In this document: one piece after another, positions 16,533 to 62,851 of the stretch
Numbering within the stretch: the first letter of the stretch is position 1
Layout: every line of letters begins with the position of its first letter
IMG/VR virus record: IMGVR_UViG_3300029906_000004
Span: 18,176 to 82,175 of that record
From: a virus
Strand: one strand, 5' to 3'
Length of the DNA: 64,000 nt
Position numbers and translations under genes: made by a program
The notes under the pieces: generated by a model
Told to the model about the DNA's origin: nothing
Database searches by the model: none
Seen by the model: the letters and a program-made list of their open reading frames with translations, nothing else

Positions 16533-19500
16533 TGAATATAAAATGTCCAAATAAAACTCTTCCTGAATGGAAGGAACTAGTTGAAGCGGTTGGTGAAAAT
16601 AGCGCCTACTATCTTTGGGATTAGAATAACGGTTATGGCTTAGATCGTGCTCCTAATGGAGCACTTTCTAAGTTATTTTCAGACCTTCTGAGCCATTATA
16701 ATGGTGATAGGAATGCTGCTATAGCAGCAAAGGCTAAAGTGTATTCAGAAGCCTTTAAAAACTGGTTTGGAGATTGGTTATCAGATGATAAGACTAGTGT
16801 ATCTAAAGTAGTAGATGAGAACGGGGAGCCTTTACTTAGTTCAGTAATTAGTAATTAGGACTTATTATAGTGGTTACAGAATAATCCTGTATAGATAACT
16901 CCAACTACATTTGATCCTTCGATTATACGTTAGATAAGTGATACTTATGAACACATTCAAAAAGGTCTCAAAGATCGTCTAAAATCTGTTAAACGTTATT
17001 CTACCAAGAATCCTAGGCTGTGGAATCAATTATCTACTGTAATATCTCAGTTAGCTAACAGTGAAGCGGAATAGGGTATCTTATAGTTCCTATAGCATAT
17101 ATCAGATACTATTAACGATGCTATTAAATTCTTACAGAAGCCTATAGATGAAATTAATGCTAAACAGATAAGACAATTGTCTTAGGACTACGTAGGATTC
17201 TATAAACCTCTTCTAGATGATATAATTTATCTATTTGATACTACTGATATATTTAAAGACTTACCTAATTATGTGGAACTACAAAGGAATGCTTATAGAT
17301 TGTCTACTGAAATGGATTAGGTCTATAATAGATTTGTCCATTTACTTAAGGCGAAAGGTATATCCGAACTAGTAAGTTATTTGTAGTCAAATAATGTACC
17401 GTAGTCATATATAGATAAAACTTTAGAATGGCTTAATAACCCTACTAACGATATTAGTATATTCCTTAACTGGTTCGGTATGGCATCTAATAGTAATAGT
17501 ATGGTTACATAGGCTATAGCTAAGATGCTAAATGATACTATAAATTAGACGTAGAGAGAGACTATGTCTAAAGGTATTGAGTTAGTTAAGTTAGCATAGG
17601 CAGCTAAAGAAAAATATGGAGTAGATGTATAGAAGTTGTTATACGAGAGACTTAATGATGGTACATATTCGGGTTATAGAGTAAGACCTATCAATTATGG
17701 TTAGTATAAGAAGGATAAACAATAGTATCTGGATAAATTAGCTAATAAGTTAGGTATAACTAAAGACAAAGAAGGTCATTATAACTTACCTAATGATGAA
17801 GCTATCCAAAAGAAATGGTTTGATGGTATTAATAAGTTTTATTCGGAGAGAGTAAATAGAAGATTTACTTCTGAATATTATACTACTAGAAATAGAATGT
17901 TATCTGTTAAGACTAGAGAAGCAATAGATGAAATACAGGATTACATAGATTCTATTGTATCTAGAGTAACTAGAGATGGTATTCAACACGATGAAGAACT
18001 CACTACATCTGAGTATTAGCAGTTACTTATGCTTAAGAGATAGAAACAGTTATTAGCTAATAGATATAACTTAGATGGAAGTATTAAGACTGGTGATGAT
18101 TTGCTAATAGCTAATGAACTATCTGCTTTTAATGAAGAAGTAAATAAGAATGTAAGTAGAGAAGTAGACTAGGAAAGATATGATAAAGATTATAAGGCTA
18201 TAGTAAAGCAATATGGTAGTAAAGATGATCCTAGAGTTAAGTTATGGGTATATAGAAATACTGTTACACGCTATAATTAGGCGTTTTACGACCGTTTAGA
18301 TAGACTAAACAAGACTCCATAGTCTGATTTATATAAAGAGCTTGTACAACGCCGTAGAGAGCTTACGTAGCTATTTAAAGATCCTGAAACTGGCTAGATA
18401 AATGTTGATATGTTATCTGATGAATAGAGAGCAATGCTTCTACAATTGGATAAAGATATAGATGCAGCCAGAACTTATTCTAGCAAAGAAGAAGATTCTG
18501 ATAGTTTTGGTAGTTTTGCCGAAGTAGTGTATACTTAGAAGTATTATGATGATGCTAGAGCTGCTCAAGCAGCCGGTTCTACTTAGTATCAACAATGGTA
18601 TGAATAGAATCATTACGAAGACCAGAGAGGTTATATGAAACCTGCTAGGTATTATACTGTATTAAGGCCTAAAGACTCTGTAGCTGACAGATATACTGAA
18701 ACAGTGCCTACTGGTAGATATACTAAAATAGATCCTACCTCTAATTGGTATAATCCTGATTATGATAATAACGGTCCTGCAATATAGCCTAAAAAGAAAT
18801 ATTATGACAATAGTAAGGCTTATAATGAAGTAATGAGTAAACCTGAAGTAAAAGCTTTGTACGAAGCTATTGTGGATACAATGAATCAGGCAAACTCGTA
18901 TATACCGTTCTTAAATACGGCTGATGATGGTAGAATGTCTTAGATGCCAGCTAGATTTGCACAGGTATGGGCTAGAATGACCGGTATTACTGATAGATTG
19001 AAGTATGCAATTGATGAAGTAGTTACTACTTAGGCTGACGATTTTGACTATGTAGAAGAATTTGCTACAATGCCTAATGGTGATCCTATTAAAGTAATAC
19101 CTACTAGATTTATACAGATGTTAGAGAATCCTAATATTATATCTACAGATGCAGTTACAGCTACCATTGCTTACTATAATATGGCTGTTAATTTTAAGAA
19201 TATGTAGGAGCAATAGGACAATATTGAACTAATGTTAGGATTACTCAAAGGTATTACTATTAGAAATAAAAAAGGTACAGTACAACCTGGTAACAGTAAT
19301 CTATATAAGTAGGCTCAATTGTTAGTAGATAGGCTAATGTATGGTAGAAACATGAATTAGGTAACTGCTAATGTATTAGGTAAAGAGATAAATATAACCA
19401 AAATGGCTACTTTATTACTTAGTTAGATACGTAAAGTTAATCTATCTGGTAATATTTGGTCTATTGGTACTAGCTTCTTTACCGATTCTACTTATACTAC

Positions 19501-41648: not shown

Positions 41649-42200
41649 TTAGTAGTTCTCTTTGACTAATTGTTTTAATCTTCGTCTTGCTTTATTGAGG
41701 TCTGTTCTTACAGTTGCCTCAGGTATAGCAAGCGTTTCAGCTATTTGCTGATAACTCTTTCCTTCTATTCTCATATTTAGCATATCTCTATATTTTTTCT
41801 TTAATAGATTTATGCATTTTAATGTTATATCTACTTCTTGTTTGTAAATATAATCATCTTCAGGACTATATTCTCGTCCATCTAATTGAATAGTAGATTC
41901 GTCATCATCAATATAGCTATTTAATTGTTCCTTCTTATTTCTCCGTATATAATCTATTGCTGTGTTTAAAGTAATAGTCTTTAACCACATTTCAAAAGAT
42001 ATATGCTGAGTATAAGTATCAAGCTTTGTAAATGCTTTTGTAAATACCATAGACACAATGTCGTCTGCAACATCGATATTTTTGACAATCTTAAAAGCTG
42101 TCCACCATATCGTTTCTTTATACGTGTAATACAATTCATTAAAAGCTTTTTCGGAACCTTGTCTAGCTTGCTCTACTAAAAGTTTTACTTCTTCTTTCAT
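41649..42200 (-). CDS. ECF (sigma-24-like) RNA polymerase sigma factor
   Basis: Region 2 (LVEQARQGSEKAFNELY...WLKTITLNTAIDYIRR) and region 4 (GKSYQQIAETLAIPEATVRTDLNKARRRL). Confidence 0.88.
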   Translation of the reverse strand: MKEEVKLLVEQARQGSEKAFNELYYTYKETIWWTAFKIVKNIDVADDIVSMVFTKAFTKLDTYTQHISFEMWLKTITLNTAIDYIRRNKKEQLNSYIDDDESTIQLDGREYSPEDDYIYKQEVDITLKCINLLKKKYRDMLNMRIEGKSYQQIAETLAIPEATVRTDLNKARRRLKQLVKENY

Positions 42201-43933: not shown

Positions 43934-43963
43934 AATTTTGATAATTAACGTTAATAATCTATT

Positions 43964-44008
43964 TGTAGTGTGGGAGGACTTGAACCTCCCTGTATGCCGT
44001 TACACTCC
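43964..44008 (-). ncRNA. Mini tRNA-like element (acceptor stem plus T-arm only)
   Basis: GGAGTGT/ACACTAC (6 of 7 pairs), GGGAGG-TTCAAGT-CCTCCC T-arm, A discriminator, short linker replacing the D and anticodon arms. Confidence 0.6.
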
Positions 44009-44312
44009 AGCTTTCTACGACATTAGCTTAGCCGTTCAGTCTATACTCACGCTACGCGAGAATAGTCTGTAACATAAGTTGTATTGCCACTTATTCGCAT
44101 TCTTAGCCTATTCATTACTGTGTCTGCGGATCAATACCTGTTAGGCCCTCGTAGAAGCCATTTTAAGGCGATTCTAGACACTTTCATTATCATCTAATAG
44201 GAATGTATTACTTTGTGTCTAAAATGTTTTAAACGGCTTAAAATGAGTGGACCTAGGTCGACTTGAACGACCGTCTCCTTCAGGCATATAATGACCTAAC
44301 AGCTAATTTCTC
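44009..44312 (-). ncRNA. ssrA: Circularly permuted two-piece tmRNA: acceptor piece ~44312-44248, intervening segment 44247-44149, coding piece 44148-~44009; tag (A)GNTTYVTDYSRVA
   Basis: GGGCCTA pairs with TAGGTCC-A giving a G3:U70 pair and A73. GAC-GGTCG-TTCAAGT-CGACC T-arm. Inter-piece helices TCC/GGA, TAATGA/TCATTA, GCTAA/TTAGC. AATAAGT-GGC resume context; the tag stop codon lies in a hairpin. Confidence 0.8.
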
Positions 44313-44477
44313 TTAAAAAGGAGTAGAAATTAATCTACTCCTTGGGGTTGACCACCTAGTAGTATAAATCGTGTCCATAGAGCTCTGGCGGAGGCTCTTG
44401 GACTACTACTGTTTTGTTGTCAGCAAACTGACATACATCACAATGAGTTTTATCACATTGTGACGGACAATCGTTCT

Positions 44478-44657
44478 TCATACGATTGCGTTTTGTGTCT
44501 TTGATCTTTTCTTTGTTTGGTAATCTACACATCTTTTAAAGTTCTGGCGATTATAAGCGTCCATCTTGTGGTGCTTAATCTTTTTCTTACTTTGATATTC
44601 TGCAGCTAGTTTAGCTTGTTTAGAGCCATAATATGACTCTTTATAAGTCTTTCCCAT
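44478..44657 (-). CDS. Small basic hypothetical protein (59 aa)
   Basis: MGKTYKESYYGSKQAK...; ATG overlaps the upstream stop. Below the track cutoff. Confidence 0.5.
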   Translation of the reverse strand: MGKTYKESYYGSKQAKLAAEYQSKKKIKHHKMDAYNRQNFKRCVDYQTKKRSKTQNAIV

Positions 44658-57027: not shown

Positions 57028-57255
57028 ATGAAGATTAATAAATAGAAAATAATACGCAATATTAAACTTTTTCTATTAGCAACATACGTGTTTGCAGCAA
57101 TAGGCTCTAGTTCTGTAGCGATTAAATCAGATGAACTTTACTTTGTAATATGTGGTATAGCTAATTTAGTAGGTAACTTCTATAATATGTTTACTATAGG
57201 ACATGAACTAATTTACCTAAAAGGAGTAGAAAAGAGGAAGAAAGAACATGATTGA
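57028..57255 (+). CDS. Two-TM small membrane protein (holin-like), TAG at codon 6
   Basis: MKINK(TAG)KIIRNIKLFLLATYVFAAIG...YFVICGIANLVGNFY...KRKKEHD. Confidence 0.55.
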
Positions 57256-60200
57256 TTTTACTAAGAAAATACATTAGAGTGATAAATTTCGTCAGCCAGC
57301 CTTAACGTATATTAGGACTGGCTAGTATTGTTAGTATCCTAAAGGTACTTCAGAATACATGAACTACTGGTCTACAGAATAGGATAGGTGCATCAATGGT
57401 TATACTGCTGATGATGGAGATTTCATTAGCGGGTATAACTATTTTTATTTGAACTACTGCCCTATACTTAGGATTGTCAATAAAGAGGTAAACGGTAAAG
57501 TTAAAGCTGTATCAGAAGTAACCTTTCCAGATTTTTGGGATTATGACTATTACTATTTCTAGACAGTAGAAGAGGCTCAATTACAAGGTAAACATTTATG
57601 TGTTCTAAAAAGTAGAAGACGTGGGTATAGTTATAAAGCTGCATCTATGATGTGTCGTAATTATTATCTTGTGCCTAATACTTCTTCATACGTATACGCT
57701 TCAAATAAGCAGTATTTAACAGACGACGGGGTGCTTACTAAAGCGTGGAACTATATGGACTTTATAGATGAACACACTGCTTGGGGTAAAAAGAGAACGG
57801 TTAATACCCAATTACGCCGTAGAGCTGGTATGTGGGTTAAAGATGAATACGGCAATCAAATAGAAGTAGGTTATAAATCTGAGATTATTGGTGTCACTTT
57901 AAAGGATAATCCGGATGTTGGTCACCCGTATGATCAAATAGTTTATACTCCCGAAGGTAAGAAGAAATGGGAAGATATCACAGTTGGATCAAAGTTATTT
58001 GATTCTAGAGGAGGAATTACGACTGTTACTGAAGTAAATGAACTTGGTAAAGTACCTGTGTATAGACTCACATTAAGCGACGGTAGAATTGTAGAAGCTA
58101 CGGCGGATCACAAGTGGAGAATATTCCGGTATAGGCATAAGCAACATAGTTGGAACGGTAAAAACGAAAAAAGAGAAATAAGAGAAATCGAGCTCACTAC
58201 TGAAGAAATATTTGGGCTTACTAAAAACAAGTCTTATAAGACGAATAGATGCAGAATTAAGACTAGATTCTCGGTACCGTTTAATCATCAAGAAGTTCCT
58301 ATTGATGCGTATACAATGGGGTTCTTATTAGGAGACGGTAGTCTTACTAAGACTTCTAATCATAAGGCTTACTTTGTTCAGTCTGCAGAAGATTATGAAA
58401 GCATAAAGCATTTATTCCCCTATAAAGTAGATAAACAATATGGTATTACTTATGCTGTTAACATACCCAACGCTAAACAGATAATTAAAGATCTCGGCTT
58501 ACTAGATAAAACTTCTGATAATAAATTTATTCCAGATTGTTATAAATATAATAGTGAAGAAATAAGAATTGCTGTATTAAACGGGTTGTTAGATACAGAC
58601 GGTAGTATTACTAAAGACTATGGGGTAATAGAATACGTAAGTAAATCTTATCAACTCGCACAAGATGTAAGATGGCTATTGTTTAGTTTAGGTATAAATA
58701 ATTCTTTACATATTAAATATATAAAAGGAATCCCTTATTATAGAGTATACGTATACTGTTCTGGAGAAGAACACAGGTTATTTTGCATTCCTAGAAAAAA
58801 AGAAAGAATTTCTATTAAGAAATCGACTCCCTTTGCTCTTAGCAAAGTCCAATATACATATATTGATAAAGTAGAAAAAATAGAAGATAAAGTATCCAAA
58901 TGCGTTACAGTTGACGCGGAAGATCATGTGTACATGATTGGAGATTTTATTGAAACTAAGAACTGTCGTGGTAAACGTGCAAACTTAATTCTATTTGAAG
59001 AAGCTGGATCGTTTAAGGAACTTTCAGCCGCTTGGCAAATAGCTCGTCCCTCGGTTGAAATTGACGGTAGAGCTTTCGCCACGATGATAGCATACGGCAC
59101 CGGAGGAGACGAAGAATCTAACTTCTTTACTCTAAAAGACATGTTCTATCATCCTGAAGGATACAATTGTTTAGCGTTGCCTAATATATGGGATGAAAAC
59201 GTATCAAATACGTCGTGTGGTTTTTTCGTTCCGTAGTATACTAATATGGACTTACGTGACGATCAAGGTAAACGTCTTTATATGGACAAAGACGGTAATA
59301 CTCTTACTATACCTGCTCGTCAATACATACTAGAAGAAAGACGTAAAGTAATAGAAAACTCTACTAATTCTGTAGCAGTAGACAGATATGTTGCAGAAAG
59401 ACCTATTACTCCTGCTGAAGCGTGTCTAGAATTTAATGGCAATATATTCCCTAAAAAAGAATTACAAGAGCAACTAGGTAAGATACGTACTAATAAGTTA
59501 TTAAGTAATCATAAGCAGATTGGGGATCTTATTTGGGAGTCAGACGGTAGTCTTAAATGGCTCTTAAAGAAGAGCGGTGATATTACTCATTATCCTCTTA
59601 ATAAGAATGATGATCCTACCGGTTCTATCGTTATATGGGAACATCCTGTAAAAGACGCTCCTATAGGTTTATATATAATCGGCGTTGACCCTTACGATCA
59701 TGATCAATCCGGTACTAATTCGTTAGGTTCTTGTTTTGTTTATAAACGGTTTTAGAATTTTGAGAATTACTATGATTTAATAGTAGCTGAATATACAGGA
59801 AGACCTTCTACGGCAGAAGAATTTTATGAAAACGTACGTAAGTTAGCAATATACTACAATGCCCATATAATGTATGAAAATCAGAATAAAGGACTATTTC
59901 CTTACTTCGTAGCTAAACATTGTGACTATTTACTCGCTGATTAGCCTGATATACTTAATGATATTATTGGTAGCAGTAAAGTAAACCGTAAAAAGGGTTG
60001 TCATATGAATAAGTAGATTAAACAGTGGGGAGAAGGTCTTATTAAGGACTGGCTCAATGACGAGAAAGCTCCTGGTCATAAAAATCTACACGATATACTA
60101 TCAGAGCCATTGCTAGAAGAACTAATTAGTTATAACGACATTGGCAACTTTGACCGCGTAATGGCTCTAATTTAGGTAATGATATATAGAGAACAACTCT

Positions 60201-60334
60201 ACAATATAGTAGTAAAAGAAAAAAAGAAACAAAATAAAAGTAGGTTACTATTCGACGGACCTATTTTTAATGAAGATTCATGGTATGACGATATTGTGAA
60301 TAACGTCGAAGAAGATGTATATACATTTAATTAA
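57248..60334 (+). CDS. terL: Terminase large subunit with intein, TAG-recoded (~1028 aa precursor)
   Basis: KSRRRGYSYK, RGKRANLILFEEAG, YIIGVDPYD, YENQ and FDRVMAL motifs. Track fragments 57647 and 59246 share the frame and are joined across TAGs. Confidence 0.9.
57920..58963 (+). mobile_element. Class 3 intein (348 aa) with LAGLIDADG endonuclease
   Basis: Starts GHPYDQIVYTPEG; block B TADHKW; block F KCVTV; block G IETKN followed by Cys+1; GFLLGDG and NGLLDTDG motifs. Confidence 0.88.
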
Positions 60335-60340
60335 CAGAAT

Positions 60341-62851
60341 ATGATAAGTAGAAACTTAGATTCGATGCCTCTTTAGAAGCTTCCTATGAGTAAAAAGACA
60401 AAGGAATGGCGAGAGGCAAATTTAGACTATATTATCGGTAAATCCGGATTTACTAGTGGTCTTGGCAATAATGGTTCTACTAAGTATGAGGAAATGTAGA
60501 CGTACTATAATCTATATAACAGTATATATGATGAGAAAGACTTACTGTACGTTACTAATCCTTTCAAGTAGAAAGACGGATTCCCTGCAACTGCACAAGA
60601 CTATAATATAATTAAGCCTAAAGTAGACTTACTATTAGGTGAAGAGACTAAACGTCCTTTTAACTTTAGAGTAGTACGTACTAGTGATGACGCTACTAGT
60701 GAAGTACAAGAAACTGCTAAGCAAATGCTTACTGATTATATAATGGCTACTGTAATGAGTAAGCTAGGTCCTGAAGAAGCGTAGAGATATCAAGAAGCAT
60801 TGTAGTCAGGTGAGATAATGCCTCCTGAGGCAATATAGAAATATCTTAGTAAAGATTATAAAGATATTGCAGAAACTACTGCATAGCATACCTTAAATTA
60901 TTTAAAGAATAAGCTTAATGTTACGCACGAGTTTTTTAAAGGGTGGAAAGATGCTTTAATAGCTGGTGAAGAAGTATATTACGTTGGTATTATTAACGGT
61001 AATCCTTACTTAGAAAGAGTCAATCCTTTATTCTTCAGTTATGATCAATAGGCTGATTTGGAATTCATTCATGATGCAGATTGGTGCTGCAGAAAGATGA
61101 TTATGTCTGCTACTTAGATATATGATAGATTCTATGATAAAATGTCTGAGAAGCAGTTAAACTAGCTCCTAGAAATGATTGAAGATACTGGTAGAGGAGG
61201 TATTAATCCAGAGGTGCGTAAGACTTCTCTAGATTATCCTCATATCAAAACCCATACTATTGGTGGATTTACTACTAATCCGTTTGATGACGTAGATGAC
61301 ATTAACGTATGGCATTGCTGCTGGAAATCCTTTAAAAAGATAGGTTTTGTCACTTACATAGATCCTGAGACAGGTGTGCCTGATGAACTATAGGTAGACG
61401 AATCTTATAAAGTAACTGGTAACGAATTAAACGTGGAATGGACTTGGATTATTGAAGTATGGGAAGGATATAGAGTTGGAGAAGATTTGTACATTGGTAT
61501 TCAACCTTTAGACTACCAACACGTATCTGCAGATAATCCTAATTCGTAGAAATTACCTTATACCGGTGTAGTATATAATAATACCAATAGTAGACCTAGG
61601 TCTTTAGTAAGCATGATGAAGCCTTTACAATATATGTATATTGTACTATGGTATAGATTGGAATTAGCAATGGCTAGAGATAAAGGTAAGATACCTGTAG
61701 TAGACGTTACTCAGATACCTAAAGACATGGGTATTGACGTTAATAAATGGATGCACTACTTATCTGCTCTTGGTGTGATGTTTATCAACCCTTATGAAGA
61801 AGGTTGGGATATACCTGGTAGAGAAGGAGGTAAACCTAGCTAGTTTAATCAATTTACCGCTCTAGATCTTACTATGGCTCCTGTAATTGATCAGTATATC
61901 AACTTAATGGCTAAGATTGAAGATATGGCATCTGAAATTACTGGAGTAAGTAAACAGCGAGAAGGGGCTATTTCGTCTAATGAGCTCGTCGGTAATGTAG
62001 AACGAAGTGTAATTCAATCAGCCCACATTACTGAACCTTGGTTCTGGGTGCATAATCAAGTAAAGAAAGAAGTACTTACTATGCTGTTAGACACTTCTAA
62101 AGAAGCTTGGAAAGGTAATAAGCGTTGTTTACATTATATACTAGACGATGCTACTAGAGCTTTTCTTACTTTGTCAGATTCGTTCTTCTACGAGGATATG
62201 GACGTATTCTTAGATGATTCTACGAAGAATCAACAGCAGATAGAAGCTCTCAGGAACCTTATGCAACCTGCTATGCAGAATGGTGCTAGCCTACTTGACA
62301 TAGCTGAGATTATTACTATGGATAATGTCAACATGATTAAGAATAGGCTCGAAGAAATTGAGCAAAAACGTATGCAACAACAACAAGCTATGGAGGAGGC
62401 TCAAGCTCAACGTGAACAGCAAGCTATTCAAATGCAGAATGAGATTAAGGAAGAAGAGCTAATGATTAAGGAAGCCGAGATGGATCTTAAGAAGTACGAG
62501 ATCGATCAGAATAATCAGACTAAGATTGTAGTAGCTCAACTTAATGCTTATAGAGGTAGTGAGAATTAGGACGTTGACTAGAACGGCGTACCTGATGTTT
62601 TGGAGATAGGAAAACAAGCTCTAGAGCAATAGAAGATTAATTCAGATGCTGCTGCTAAGCAATTAGAACTCAATAATAAGCGTAGAGAGACTGAGATGAA
62701 ACGTGAGATTGAGAATAAGAAGATTGAGTTAGAGAAGCAGCGTATGAAACAAGAAATAGAGCTTTAGAAGATGAAAGATGAAGAAGCTTATAAACGTGAA
62801 CAATTAAAAGCCCGCACTGCAATTCGCAATAAAGTATCGGGTGAAAAGTAA
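60341..62851 (+). CDS. Portal protein (~836 aa), TAG-recoded
   Basis: Directly after TerL. NYNIIKPKVDLLLGEE, WKDALIAGEE, GVSKQREG motifs; track fragments 61175, 61613 and 61874 are in this frame. Confidence 0.88.

Follow-up and report, generated by a model that had tools for sequence, protein, structure and literature searches.

A probable circularly permuted, two-piece tmRNA gene in a TAG-recoded crAss-like phage and its relatives

Within the 64,000-nucleotide (nt) stretch of phage DNA analysed here, called the window (positions 18,176 to 82,175 of the IMG/VR virus record IMGVR_UViG_3300029906_000004), positions 44007-44309 of the minus strand very probably constitute a functional, circularly permuted two-piece transfer-messenger RNA (tmRNA, SsrA) gene, which belongs to a family carried by Suoliviridae-type crAss-like phages. 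The 103-kb record, which has terminal repeats, represents the complete genome of the phage, whose DNA was found in chicken-gut metagenomes. The crAss-like phages are among the most abundant viruses of the vertebrate gut, and their early RNA biology has barely been studied. The gene family is not new as a kind, being annotated in the RefSeq Suoliviridae genomes cr52_1, cr60_1, cr114_1, cr115_1 and cr125_1, and the window copy is a divergent new member of this known, barely studied kind. A full-text literature search found no paper describing a tmRNA of crAss-like phages, and its matches were citations of the ARAGORN method.

Overall organization of the gene

ARAGORN called a single tmRNA in the whole window, a 'tmRNA*' (permuted) at 43956-44339(-) with the tag GNTTYVTDYSRVA and the resume consensus aataagtGGCaatacaac, and called none in 60 dinucleotide-shuffled copies of the 64-kb window. 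The tag is identical to the one proposed in an initial annotation made from the DNA letters, and all the sequence elements listed in that annotation are present in their places on the minus strand. The parts of the gene and the element that follows it are given below in their 5' to 3' order.

44007-44309, minus: two-piece tmRNA (SsrA) gene, whole (ARAGORN, sequence read and homologue alignment)
44248..44309, minus: acceptor piece, 62 nt, 3' half of the tRNA-like domain (ARAGORN 3' tRNA domain)
44306-44302, minus: P2c strand TTAGC, acceptor piece
44301-44295, minus: invariant loop TGTTAGG, acceptor piece
44294-44289, minus: P2b strand TCATTA, acceptor piece
44283-44276, minus: P2a strand CTG-AA-GGA, acceptor piece
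44275-44273, minus: GAC, acceptor piece, between the P2a strand and the T arm
44272-44256, minus: T arm GGTCG-TTCAAGT-CGACC, acceptor piece
44255-44249, minus: acceptor 3' strand TAGGTCC, acceptor piece
44248, minus: discriminator A (A73), last base of the acceptor piece
44149..44247, minus: spacer, 99 nt, between the acceptor and coding pieces, folding as a long hairpin
44007..44148, minus: coding piece, 142 nt, its 3' end uncertain by about 2 nt (44007-44009) (ARAGORN 5' tRNA domain and resume consensus)
44148-44142, minus: acceptor 5' strand GGGCCTA, coding piece
44141-44131, minus: D-loop analogue ACAGGTATTGA, coding piece
44130-44124, minus: P2a strand TCC-G-CAG, coding piece
44117-44112, minus: P2b strand TAATGA, coding piece
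44111-44108, minus: loop ATAG, coding piece
44107-44103, minus: P2c strand GCTAA, coding piece
44102-44089, minus: single-stranded resume context (AAUAAGU before GGC), coding piece
44047..44088, minus: tag frame, with the resume GGC at 44088 and the stop TGA at 44049-44047 (ARAGORN)
44037..44069, minus: P5-like hairpin over the last tag codons and the stop (RNAfold)
44016..44035, minus: invariant 20-mer ACGGCTAAGCTAATGTCGTA, hairpin ACGGC/GTCGT with a 9-nt loop (homologue alignment)
43966..44006, minus: tRNA-like minihelix with an AGTGT...ACACT acceptor-like stem and a T arm GGGAGG-TTCAAGT-CCTCCC, followed by A (sequence read)

When the two pieces are brought together, GGGCCTA and TAGGTCC form an acceptor stem of seven pairs with G3·U70, followed by A73 at 44248, exactly as the initial annotation had described. 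Three further helices join the pieces, namely TCC/GGA (44130-44128 with 44278-44276), TAATGA/TCATTA (44117-44112 with 44294-44289) and GCTAA/TTAGC (44107-44103 with 44306-44302). Fold prediction gives a single long hairpin for the spacer (-21.1 kcal/mol, z -3.43); its proposed self-pairing is thereby upheld, in a register that differs partly from the one first drawn. A short tail, GAAAGCTGG, follows the invariant 20-mer up to 44007.

Homologues and covariation of the helices

A BLAST search of the phage collection returned 13 crAss-like records with 71-86% identity over the tag region and the stretch after it. Five of the 13 already carry 'transfer-messenger RNA, SsrA' at the homologous place, and the three that were inspected are Suoliviridae, and the statement in the initial annotation that no permuted tmRNA was known from Bacteroidota phages is not upheld. 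The 20-mer ACGGCTAAGCTAATGTCGTA is invariant in a four-way alignment of the window with three RefSeq relatives, and it recurs exactly in more than 115 IMG/VR contigs among the matches listed. From the listed IMG/VR matches and the RefSeq crAss-like phages, 97 homologous genes were parsed, of which 74 are distinct. Piece sizes vary little across this family (acceptor piece 61-63 nt, coding piece 139-148 nt, total about 205 nt), whereas the spacer ranges from 15 to 193 nt and is not conserved.

All 97 parsed homologues have, at the expected place, a 7-mer able to pair with the acceptor 3' strand along its whole length. In the 85 sequences of the first parse, this 7-mer was unique between the acceptor 3' strand and the tag region and lay 110-119 nt upstream of the 20-mer. 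The acceptor stem occurs in ten types, all perfectly paired, in which positions 4-7 covary while G1-C72, G2-C71, G3·U70 and A73 are invariant throughout the 97 genes.

GGGCCTA / TAGGTCC (the window's type)
GGGGCAT / ATGCTCC
GGGGCTG / CAGCTCC
GGGGCTA / TAGCTCC
GGGGGTA / TACCTCC
GGGGGTG / CACCTCC
GGGGTAT / ATACTCC
GGGGATG / CATCTCC
GGGTGTG / CACATCC
GGGCGTG / CACGTCC

The other helices of the joined molecule change in the same manner. The T stem appears in 13 versions among the homologues, each with five of five pairs. In P2a, the window's TCC-G-CAG/CTG-AA-GGA is replaced in relatives by CAGCGAC/GTCG(T)TTG, CTGCGAC/GTCG(T)TAG, TTGCAAC/GTTGTAA, CAGCAAT/ATTG(T)TTG, TTG-G-CAG/CTG-AG-CAA and others. 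In P2b, TAATGA/TCATTA alternates with ATAGA/TCTAT, and in P2c the window has GCTAA/TTAGC against the usual GTCAAT/ATTGAC, with GTCATA/TATGAC in one genome.

We then counted covariation in fixed columns of a MAFFT alignment of 31 representatives, which was not fitted to the structure. Paired cells made up 92.0%, compared with 80.7% after shuffling (0 of 500 shuffles as high) and 34-48% with slid partners. Pairs with a compensatory change numbered 19 (12.7 in shuffles and 6-12 with slid partners), and cells changed on both sides numbered 117 (33 in shuffles and 13-30 with slid partners). By helix, compensatory changes were seen in 4 of 7 pairs of the acceptor stem, 5 of 5 of the T arm, 6 of 7 of P2a, 2 of 5 of P2b and 2 of 6 of P2c, and the few unpaired cells come from rows, the window row included, that MAFFT had shifted by one column. 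With RNAalifold on the re-joined alignment, the acceptor stem, the T arm and the 3' hairpin were the only helices to emerge, since MAFFT puts the variable P2 region out of register, and this result was replaced by extraction anchored on the invariant motifs together with the fixed-column count. The hairpin of the 20-mer, being invariant, gives no covariation information. The initial annotation had read the locus as a circularly permuted, compact two-piece tmRNA in a TAG-recoded crAss-like phage, and the homologues support that reading: the acceptor stem, the T arm and all three P2 helices that join the pieces covary, and the tag frame is kept.

Tag reading frame and 3' modules

The window tag reads GGC AAT ACA ACT TAT GTT ACA GAC TAT TCT CGC GTA GCG TGA and gives (A)GNTTYVTDYSRVA. 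This is the 13-codon tag that had been proposed to open at AATAAGT-GGC and to have its stop in a hairpin, and the stop does lie in the 3' strand of the 44069-44037 hairpin. The tag frame is conserved in the manner of a coding sequence, on several counts. First, the conservation in homologues that the initial annotation had named as a condition was found in all 74 distinct genes, in which the frame is open for 13-15 codons, starts with GGC, or GAC in one subgroup, and stops with TGA in 47 cases, TAA in 27 and TAG in none. Second, the tags come in 20 peptide variants with a common core, Y/F-V/I-T/M/S-D/N-Y-T/S-R/G-L/I/V-x-A, and every variant ends in A, mostly in AA or VA. Third, the third codon positions vary twice as much as the first and second positions. 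Finally, 18 or 21 nt separate the resume codon from the D-Y codons in 73 of the 74 genes, indicating that insertions and deletions in the tag are in frame (multiples of three).

RNAfold predicts the P5-like stop hairpin in 46 of 46 distinct homologue versions, with outer stems that differ by lineage (CAGAC/GTCTG, GGACT/AGTCC, AGATTAC/GTAATCT and TGAACT/AGTTCA), and the predicted hairpin corresponds to P5 of tmRNA. A version of it drawn as the inner stem only was discarded, as it was 70% paired in fixed columns with no compensatory change; folding each sequence by itself gave the longer hairpin. Pseudoknots are typical of tmRNA and not universal. Pseudoknot 1 (PK1) is normally important for tagging; the tmRNA of Escherichia coli can do without pseudoknots 2 to 4 (PK2-4) and tolerates a stable helix in place of PK1. 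In the phage family the last P2 helix, P2c, ends 12-14 nt before the resume codon (14 nt in the window), which leaves no room for PK1, and from its position in the sequence the trans helix P2b/P2c appears to sit where PK1 would. The RNA of about 200 nt without obvious pseudoknots 1 to 4 that had been noticed at first thus agrees with the piece total of about 205 nt and with this short gap. A 3' pairing CGGCU/AGCUG, or a loop-tail pseudoknot AGCU/AGCU of 3-4 bp, would be possible with one side invariant, and the variants AGCA, AGCG and AGCC weaken the loop-tail AGCU pairing.

A tRNA or tRNA-like element of 43-80 nt lies directly 3' of the coding piece in at least 56 of the 97 homologues. The acceptor stems of these elements covary (AGTAAGT/ACTTACT, TTACGGA/TCCGTAA and AATAGGA/TCCTATT), and ARAGORN calls among them include tRNA-Leu(taa), as in cr60_1, and tRNA-Ile(gat). 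In the window the element is reduced to an acceptor-like stem and a T arm (43966-44006), on the T arm of which RF00023 gives a weak local match. That the spacer can host another RNase P/Z substrate is seen in cr114_1, where it encloses an entire tRNA-His(gtg) (L002 1316-1388, 63 bits).

Similarity to Bacteroidota tmRNAs in swapped order

Bacteroidota tmRNAs were fetched by tag pattern, and ARAGORN called 102 standard genes among them, of about 395 nt and with the tag GENNYALAA. A profile built on these genes matches the acceptor pieces of relatives at its positions 350-395 of 395 (E down to 5.5e-9), and their downstream 5' strand at host positions 1-25 (E 0.006). The end of the host gene thus lies upstream and its beginning downstream, indicating that the host order is swapped in the phages. 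In addition, the relatives and the host tmRNA have in common the strings TGGTTTTGACAGC and GTTTGGACGAGGGTTCGA, a resume codon for Gly with TAAYTGGC in front of it, and the motif GTAGAAAGC. The D-loop analogue of the relatives, TATGGTTTTGAC, is identical over 13 nt to that of Bacteroidota tmRNA, and the window variant ACAGGTATTGA is shared with a subgroup.

The motif GTAGAAAGC stands 47-48 nt from the 3' end in 82 of the 102 Bacteroidota tmRNAs and ends the coding piece in the phages, which places the break just 3' of this element. The invariant 20-mer resembles the cTAAGCATGTAGAAAGC element, likewise 47-48 nt from the 3' end of Bacteroidota tmRNAs. The profile alignment across the 20-mer is marginal (E 0.014-0.05), and from such alignments comes the idea that the downstream minihelix might be a relic of an ancestral 3' tRNA-like half, left by a tandem-duplication route.

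The models of the permuted bacterial lineages, whose cut-offs are 50-84 bits, fit the relatives poorly. The alpha model RF01849 gave no matches, the beta model RF01850 gave 18.9-19.6 bits (cut-off 84) and covered only the tRNA-like part of the model, and the cyano model RF01851 gave 16.2-25.4 bits (cut-off 70). The phage RNA is about half the size of Bacteroidota tmRNA, and its tRNA-like domain and resume context appear to derive from it. Judged by similarity and not by a tree, a Bacteroidota-type tmRNA is the most likely ancestor of the family, and its permutation most likely arose apart from those of the three bacterial lineages. The independent permutation suggested in the initial annotation accordingly stays at the level of plausible, with the alpha, beta and cyano models reaching at most about 25 bits on the relatives, and with the tRNA-like domain and resume context Bacteroidota-like.

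Proposed maturation and function

From this organization we infer the processing sites, the charging, the use of SmpB, the tagging and the benefit to the phage as follows. The locus would be transcribed within the minus-strand, standard-code early/middle gene block. The upstream acceptor piece would pair in trans with the 5' part of the coding piece through the 7-bp acceptor stem and the three P2 helices, and the paired pieces would rebuild a tRNA-Ala-like domain with G3·U70, A73, the T arm and the D-loop analogue, while the extended P2b/P2c helix would take the place of PK1. Host RNase P would cut at G1 of the coding piece and the spacer would be removed in maturation. The minihelix that follows is probably a second RNase P substrate, a cut at its 5' end setting the 3' end of the coding piece. 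CCA is encoded after the discriminator in none of the 97 homologues, all of which have C and then T, A or G, and the acceptor end would be finished by host 3' trimming enzymes and the host CCA-adding enzyme.

Host AlaRS would then charge the RNA with alanine, and host SmpB and EF-Tu would deliver it to stalled ribosomes. Since the phage has no SmpB and no encoded CCA, the host would have to supply RNase P, the 3' trimming activity, the CCA-adding enzyme, AlaRS, SmpB and EF-Tu. Translation would resume at GGC and append AGNTTYVTDYSRVA; like bacterial tags, this peptide ends in a small non-polar residue pair, and it would expose the tagged protein to proteolysis. The most likely benefit to the phage would be extra ribosome-rescue capacity during infection.

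Points against the tmRNA gene and alternative explanations

Several observations weigh against a working tmRNA at this locus. First, scans at the gathering score and at E<=10 gave no Rfam match at the window locus, and RF04321, RF01849, RF01850 and RF01851 run on the whole phage genome gave nothing there; membership of the window copy therefore rests on ARAGORN and on alignment to relatives. The Rfam comparison that the initial annotation had named was thus divided in its outcome: RF00023 and the permuted models leave the window copy unmatched, while RF04321 (tmRNA_permuted), whose gathering score is 47, reaches 50.9 bits on one RefSeq relative, above that cut-off, and 41.3 and 40.3 bits on two others (E 7e-8 to 2e-5). 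Second, an SmpB gene is absent from the 103-kb phage genome. Third, no pseudoknot is evident: PK1 has no room, and PK2-4 are absent, as only the P5-like hairpin and one small invariant hairpin follow the tag. Fourth, the 5' end of the acceptor piece is undefined. Fifth, a minority of homologues (such as L102, L103, L109 and L095) have non-canonical T loops (GGCAGTA, GGCAGTG, the 8-nt TATCGTAT and the 6-nt TTCGCC), which would be unusual for a tRNA-like domain competent for SmpB or EF-Tu; the same homologues keep a perfect T stem and acceptor stem. Finally, four metatranscriptome runs held only relatives (88-95% identity), as assembled contigs that are possibly DNA. One of these contigs breaks off at 44011, close to where the coding piece is predicted to have its 3' end, but contig ends prove nothing.

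Among the alternatives, we hold it doubtful that a working tmRNA is kept specifically because of TAG reassignment. By this route, late amber suppression would cause read-through of host and early phage TAG stops to mRNA ends, or early termination at in-frame TAGs would yield defective products, and the phage would need its own rescue and tagging with a frame that avoids TAG. The recoding itself, as stated in the initial annotation, is evident. The plus-strand late genes of the window (2-20707 and 57221-62851) need TAG as a sense codon, and reading it so gives plus-strand frames of 4541, 1393, 1037 and 838 codons. The 1037-codon frame is the terminase, whose N-terminal part also matches primase/helicase-loader families, and the portal gene of the window contains TAG in frame 17 times. 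From about 21 to 56 kb, the minus-strand block with the tmRNA gene reads by the standard code. The portal likewise carries 9-17 in-frame TAGs in 11 of 11 tmRNA-bearing relatives in which it was found, and TAG serves neither as stop nor as internal codon in any of the 74 tag frames. This pattern is compatible with the idea that the RNA may rescue ribosomes during the code switch. That role and the other two put forward in the initial annotation, standing in for a cleaved host tmRNA and redirecting tagged proteins, are speculative. On the other hand, the window and the 11 relatives, 12 TAG-recoding carriers in all, belong to one clade with portals 70-82% identical, so that the co-occurrence is at most a single phylogenetic event. 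Moreover, host Bacteroidota tags also avoid TAG, and as the 102 sampled genes end in TAA by construction of the search pattern they offer no independent check.

A fuller account would combine these elements, namely a fourth independent permutation from a Bacteroidota one-piece gene with its break 3' of GUAGAAAGC, loss of all four pseudoknots with P2b/P2c in place of PK1, maturation aided by the minihelix, and retention for the read-through and non-stop load of amber suppression with a TAG-free tag. We consider it improbable that all of these are true together.

We also considered a non-tagging mimic of tmRNA, whose tRNA-like domain would block trans-translation in the host by competing for its SmpB, AlaRS or ribosomes, as reported for the tmRNA-like RNA without a reading frame of mycobacteriophage DS6A (cited in PMC11915505). 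The small size, the lack of pseudoknots and of a phage SmpB, and the odd T loops of some relatives would suit such a decoy. Against this, a reading frame would serve no purpose in a decoy, whereas all 74 distinct genes keep theirs open, with in-frame indels, a conserved peptide core, an excess of third-position changes and a kept resume context, and the stop-codon hairpin is conserved as well. We regard the mimic as very improbable. It is hardly credible that the locus is not a tmRNA at all and that ARAGORN joined parts of some processing cassette of tRNAs or tRNA-like elements, in an early region rich in tRNAs, ribozymes and minihelices: the region is indeed full of tRNA-like elements (the minihelix at 43966-44006, and tRNAs in or near the gene in relatives) and the Rfam models miss the window copy, but acceptor strands 15-193 nt apart covary perfectly around an invariant G3·U70, the matches of the D-loop analogue and the 3' half are specific to tmRNA profiles, the homologues conserve the tag frame and the shuffled windows gave no ARAGORN tmRNA call. 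A functional two-piece tmRNA gene is the reading that we prefer.

Genomic neighbourhood

Upstream of the gene lies one further feature on the same strand.

44319..44342, minus: terminator-like hairpin GGAGTAGA-TTAATT-TCTACTCC, then TTTTT (read directly from the sequence)

This hairpin stops 9 nt short of the acceptor piece and forms the end of a small gene upstream, 44356-44532; it is absent from the listing of a simple terminator scan. The promoter and terminator scan found 3 promoter-like sites (shuffle mean 3.1) and 2 terminator-like sites (shuffle mean 0.7, standard deviation 0.8), numbers not clearly above the shuffled ones, and neither of the terminator-like sites is on the strand of the tmRNA gene. 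About 2 kb downstream lies an ECF-type sigma factor (41649-42200, minus; phrog_1740, E 1.5e-26), in synteny with the gene annotated 'sigma-W factor' in cr52_1 and cr60_1.

Other structured RNAs occur nearby. A Hatchet ribozyme lies at 45620-45732 of the minus strand (96.9 bits against a gathering score of 51, E 2.6e-19), about 1.3 kb upstream on the same strand. RAGATH-9 (153.7 bits) and RAGATH-20 (120-122 bits) RNAs are found in cr114_1 (L002 792-959), cr52_1 (L001 853-955) and cr60_1 (L003 906-1007), 250-430 nt upstream of the tmRNA gene. With these neighbours, the tmRNA gene sits in an RNA-rich early region in the window and in the RefSeq relatives.

In the portal genes of the relatives, two irregularities were seen. 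The record behind L074 (17419-20991) has two portal matches about 1 kb apart in one frame of 1197 codons, a split that points to an inserted element. Two full portal copies are present in the 118-kb record behind L009, suggesting a concatemer or an assembly artefact.

The 20-mer was found in only six contigs of bacterial genomes (L119-L124), with no Bacteroidota chromosome among them. These contigs belong to metagenome-assembled genomes (MAGs) labelled Mollicutes, Sphaerochaeta, Intestinibacter, Clostridium and Erysipelotrichaceae, and two are about 100 kb long. They look like crAss-like phage DNA mis-binned into unrelated MAGs.

Biological meaning

A conserved, phage-encoded rescue RNA would mean that crAss-like phages invest in translation quality control. 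At about 205 nt, in two pieces and without pseudoknots, the RNA may be near a natural minimal tmRNA and could serve to test which parts of the molecule are needed. The invariant 20-mer is a practical marker, with its more than 115 viral contigs among the matches listed and, in addition, the crAss-like contigs mis-binned in MAGs. Specialists may find three things of note: a permutation that was probably independent, a minimal design free of pseudoknots, and a tRNA-like element that abuts the coding piece as a probable processing signal.

Comparison with known tmRNAs

The closest known systems are the RefSeq Suoliviridae genes (cr52_1, NC_055888; cr60_1, NC_055891; cr114_1, NC_055897; cr115_1; cr125_1), which belong to the same family and occupy the syntenic place. 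They share with the window copy the permuted order, the 20-mer, the TGTTAGG loop, and a tRNA or tRNA-like element after the coding piece, as well as their neighbours, small early genes on the upstream side and a sigma factor some 2 kb beyond the gene. In cr52_1, cr60_1 and cr114_1, ARAGORN finds permuted tmRNAs with the related tags GNTSYVTDYTRLVA, GNFYVTDYTRIAA and GNTSYVMDYTRLAA. The window copy differs from these genes in its stem GGGCCTA/TAGGTCC, its P2c GCTAA/TTAGC, its D-loop analogue ACAGGTATTGA and its unique tag. By BLAST it is 71-86% identical in the tag region only and, unlike the RefSeq copies, it falls below detection by RF04321. The window phage also comes from the chicken gut, unlike the host environment of the RefSeq Suoliviridae relatives.

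The two-piece tmRNAs of alphaproteobacteria and of some betaproteobacteria and cyanobacteria have the same succession of acceptor piece, spacer and coding piece, joined by the acceptor stem and P2, with the tag after the 5' strand, and maturation is presumably by tRNA-processing enzymes in both. The phage family differs in resuming at GGC in a TAAYTGGC-type context as in Bacteroidota, in having no pseudoknots, in its size of about 205 nt, and in a break that falls immediately 3' of the GUAGAAAGC element in the P2 region of Bacteroidota.

The one-piece Bacteroidota tmRNA shares with the phage family a near-identical 5' strand and D-loop analogue in the relatives (TGGTTTTGACAGC), a near-identical 3' half (GTTTGGACGAGGGTTCGA...CTCCAC), the P2a geometry, the GUAGAAAGC element, and a Gly resume codon with UAA at -6 to -4. 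It differs in being one piece in normal order with four pseudoknots and about 395 nt, whereas the phage version is split and half the size. The tags are different as well, GENNYALAA in Bacteroidota against 13-15 residues of the Y/F-V-T-D-Y-T-R-L/I-x-A type in the phages.

Among phages, two-piece tmRNAs have been published for marine phages such as Melnitz (PMC9004378), and those genes are alphaproteobacterial in type (PMC9004378). A tmRNA database of 2025 screened RefSeq viruses (PMC11915505), and its supplement has no phage entries by name. One-piece tmRNAs are carried by, for example, cluster C1 mycobacteriophages, and mycobacteriophage DS6A has a tmRNA-like RNA that lacks a reading frame and reportedly inhibits trans-translation (cited in PMC11915505). 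These mycobacteriophage RNAs, like the crAss-like one, are phage-borne and would depend on host SmpB and AlaRS, but they are not permuted. The DS6A RNA, an inhibitor by that account, lacks a tag frame, whereas in the crAss-like phages the frame is conserved.

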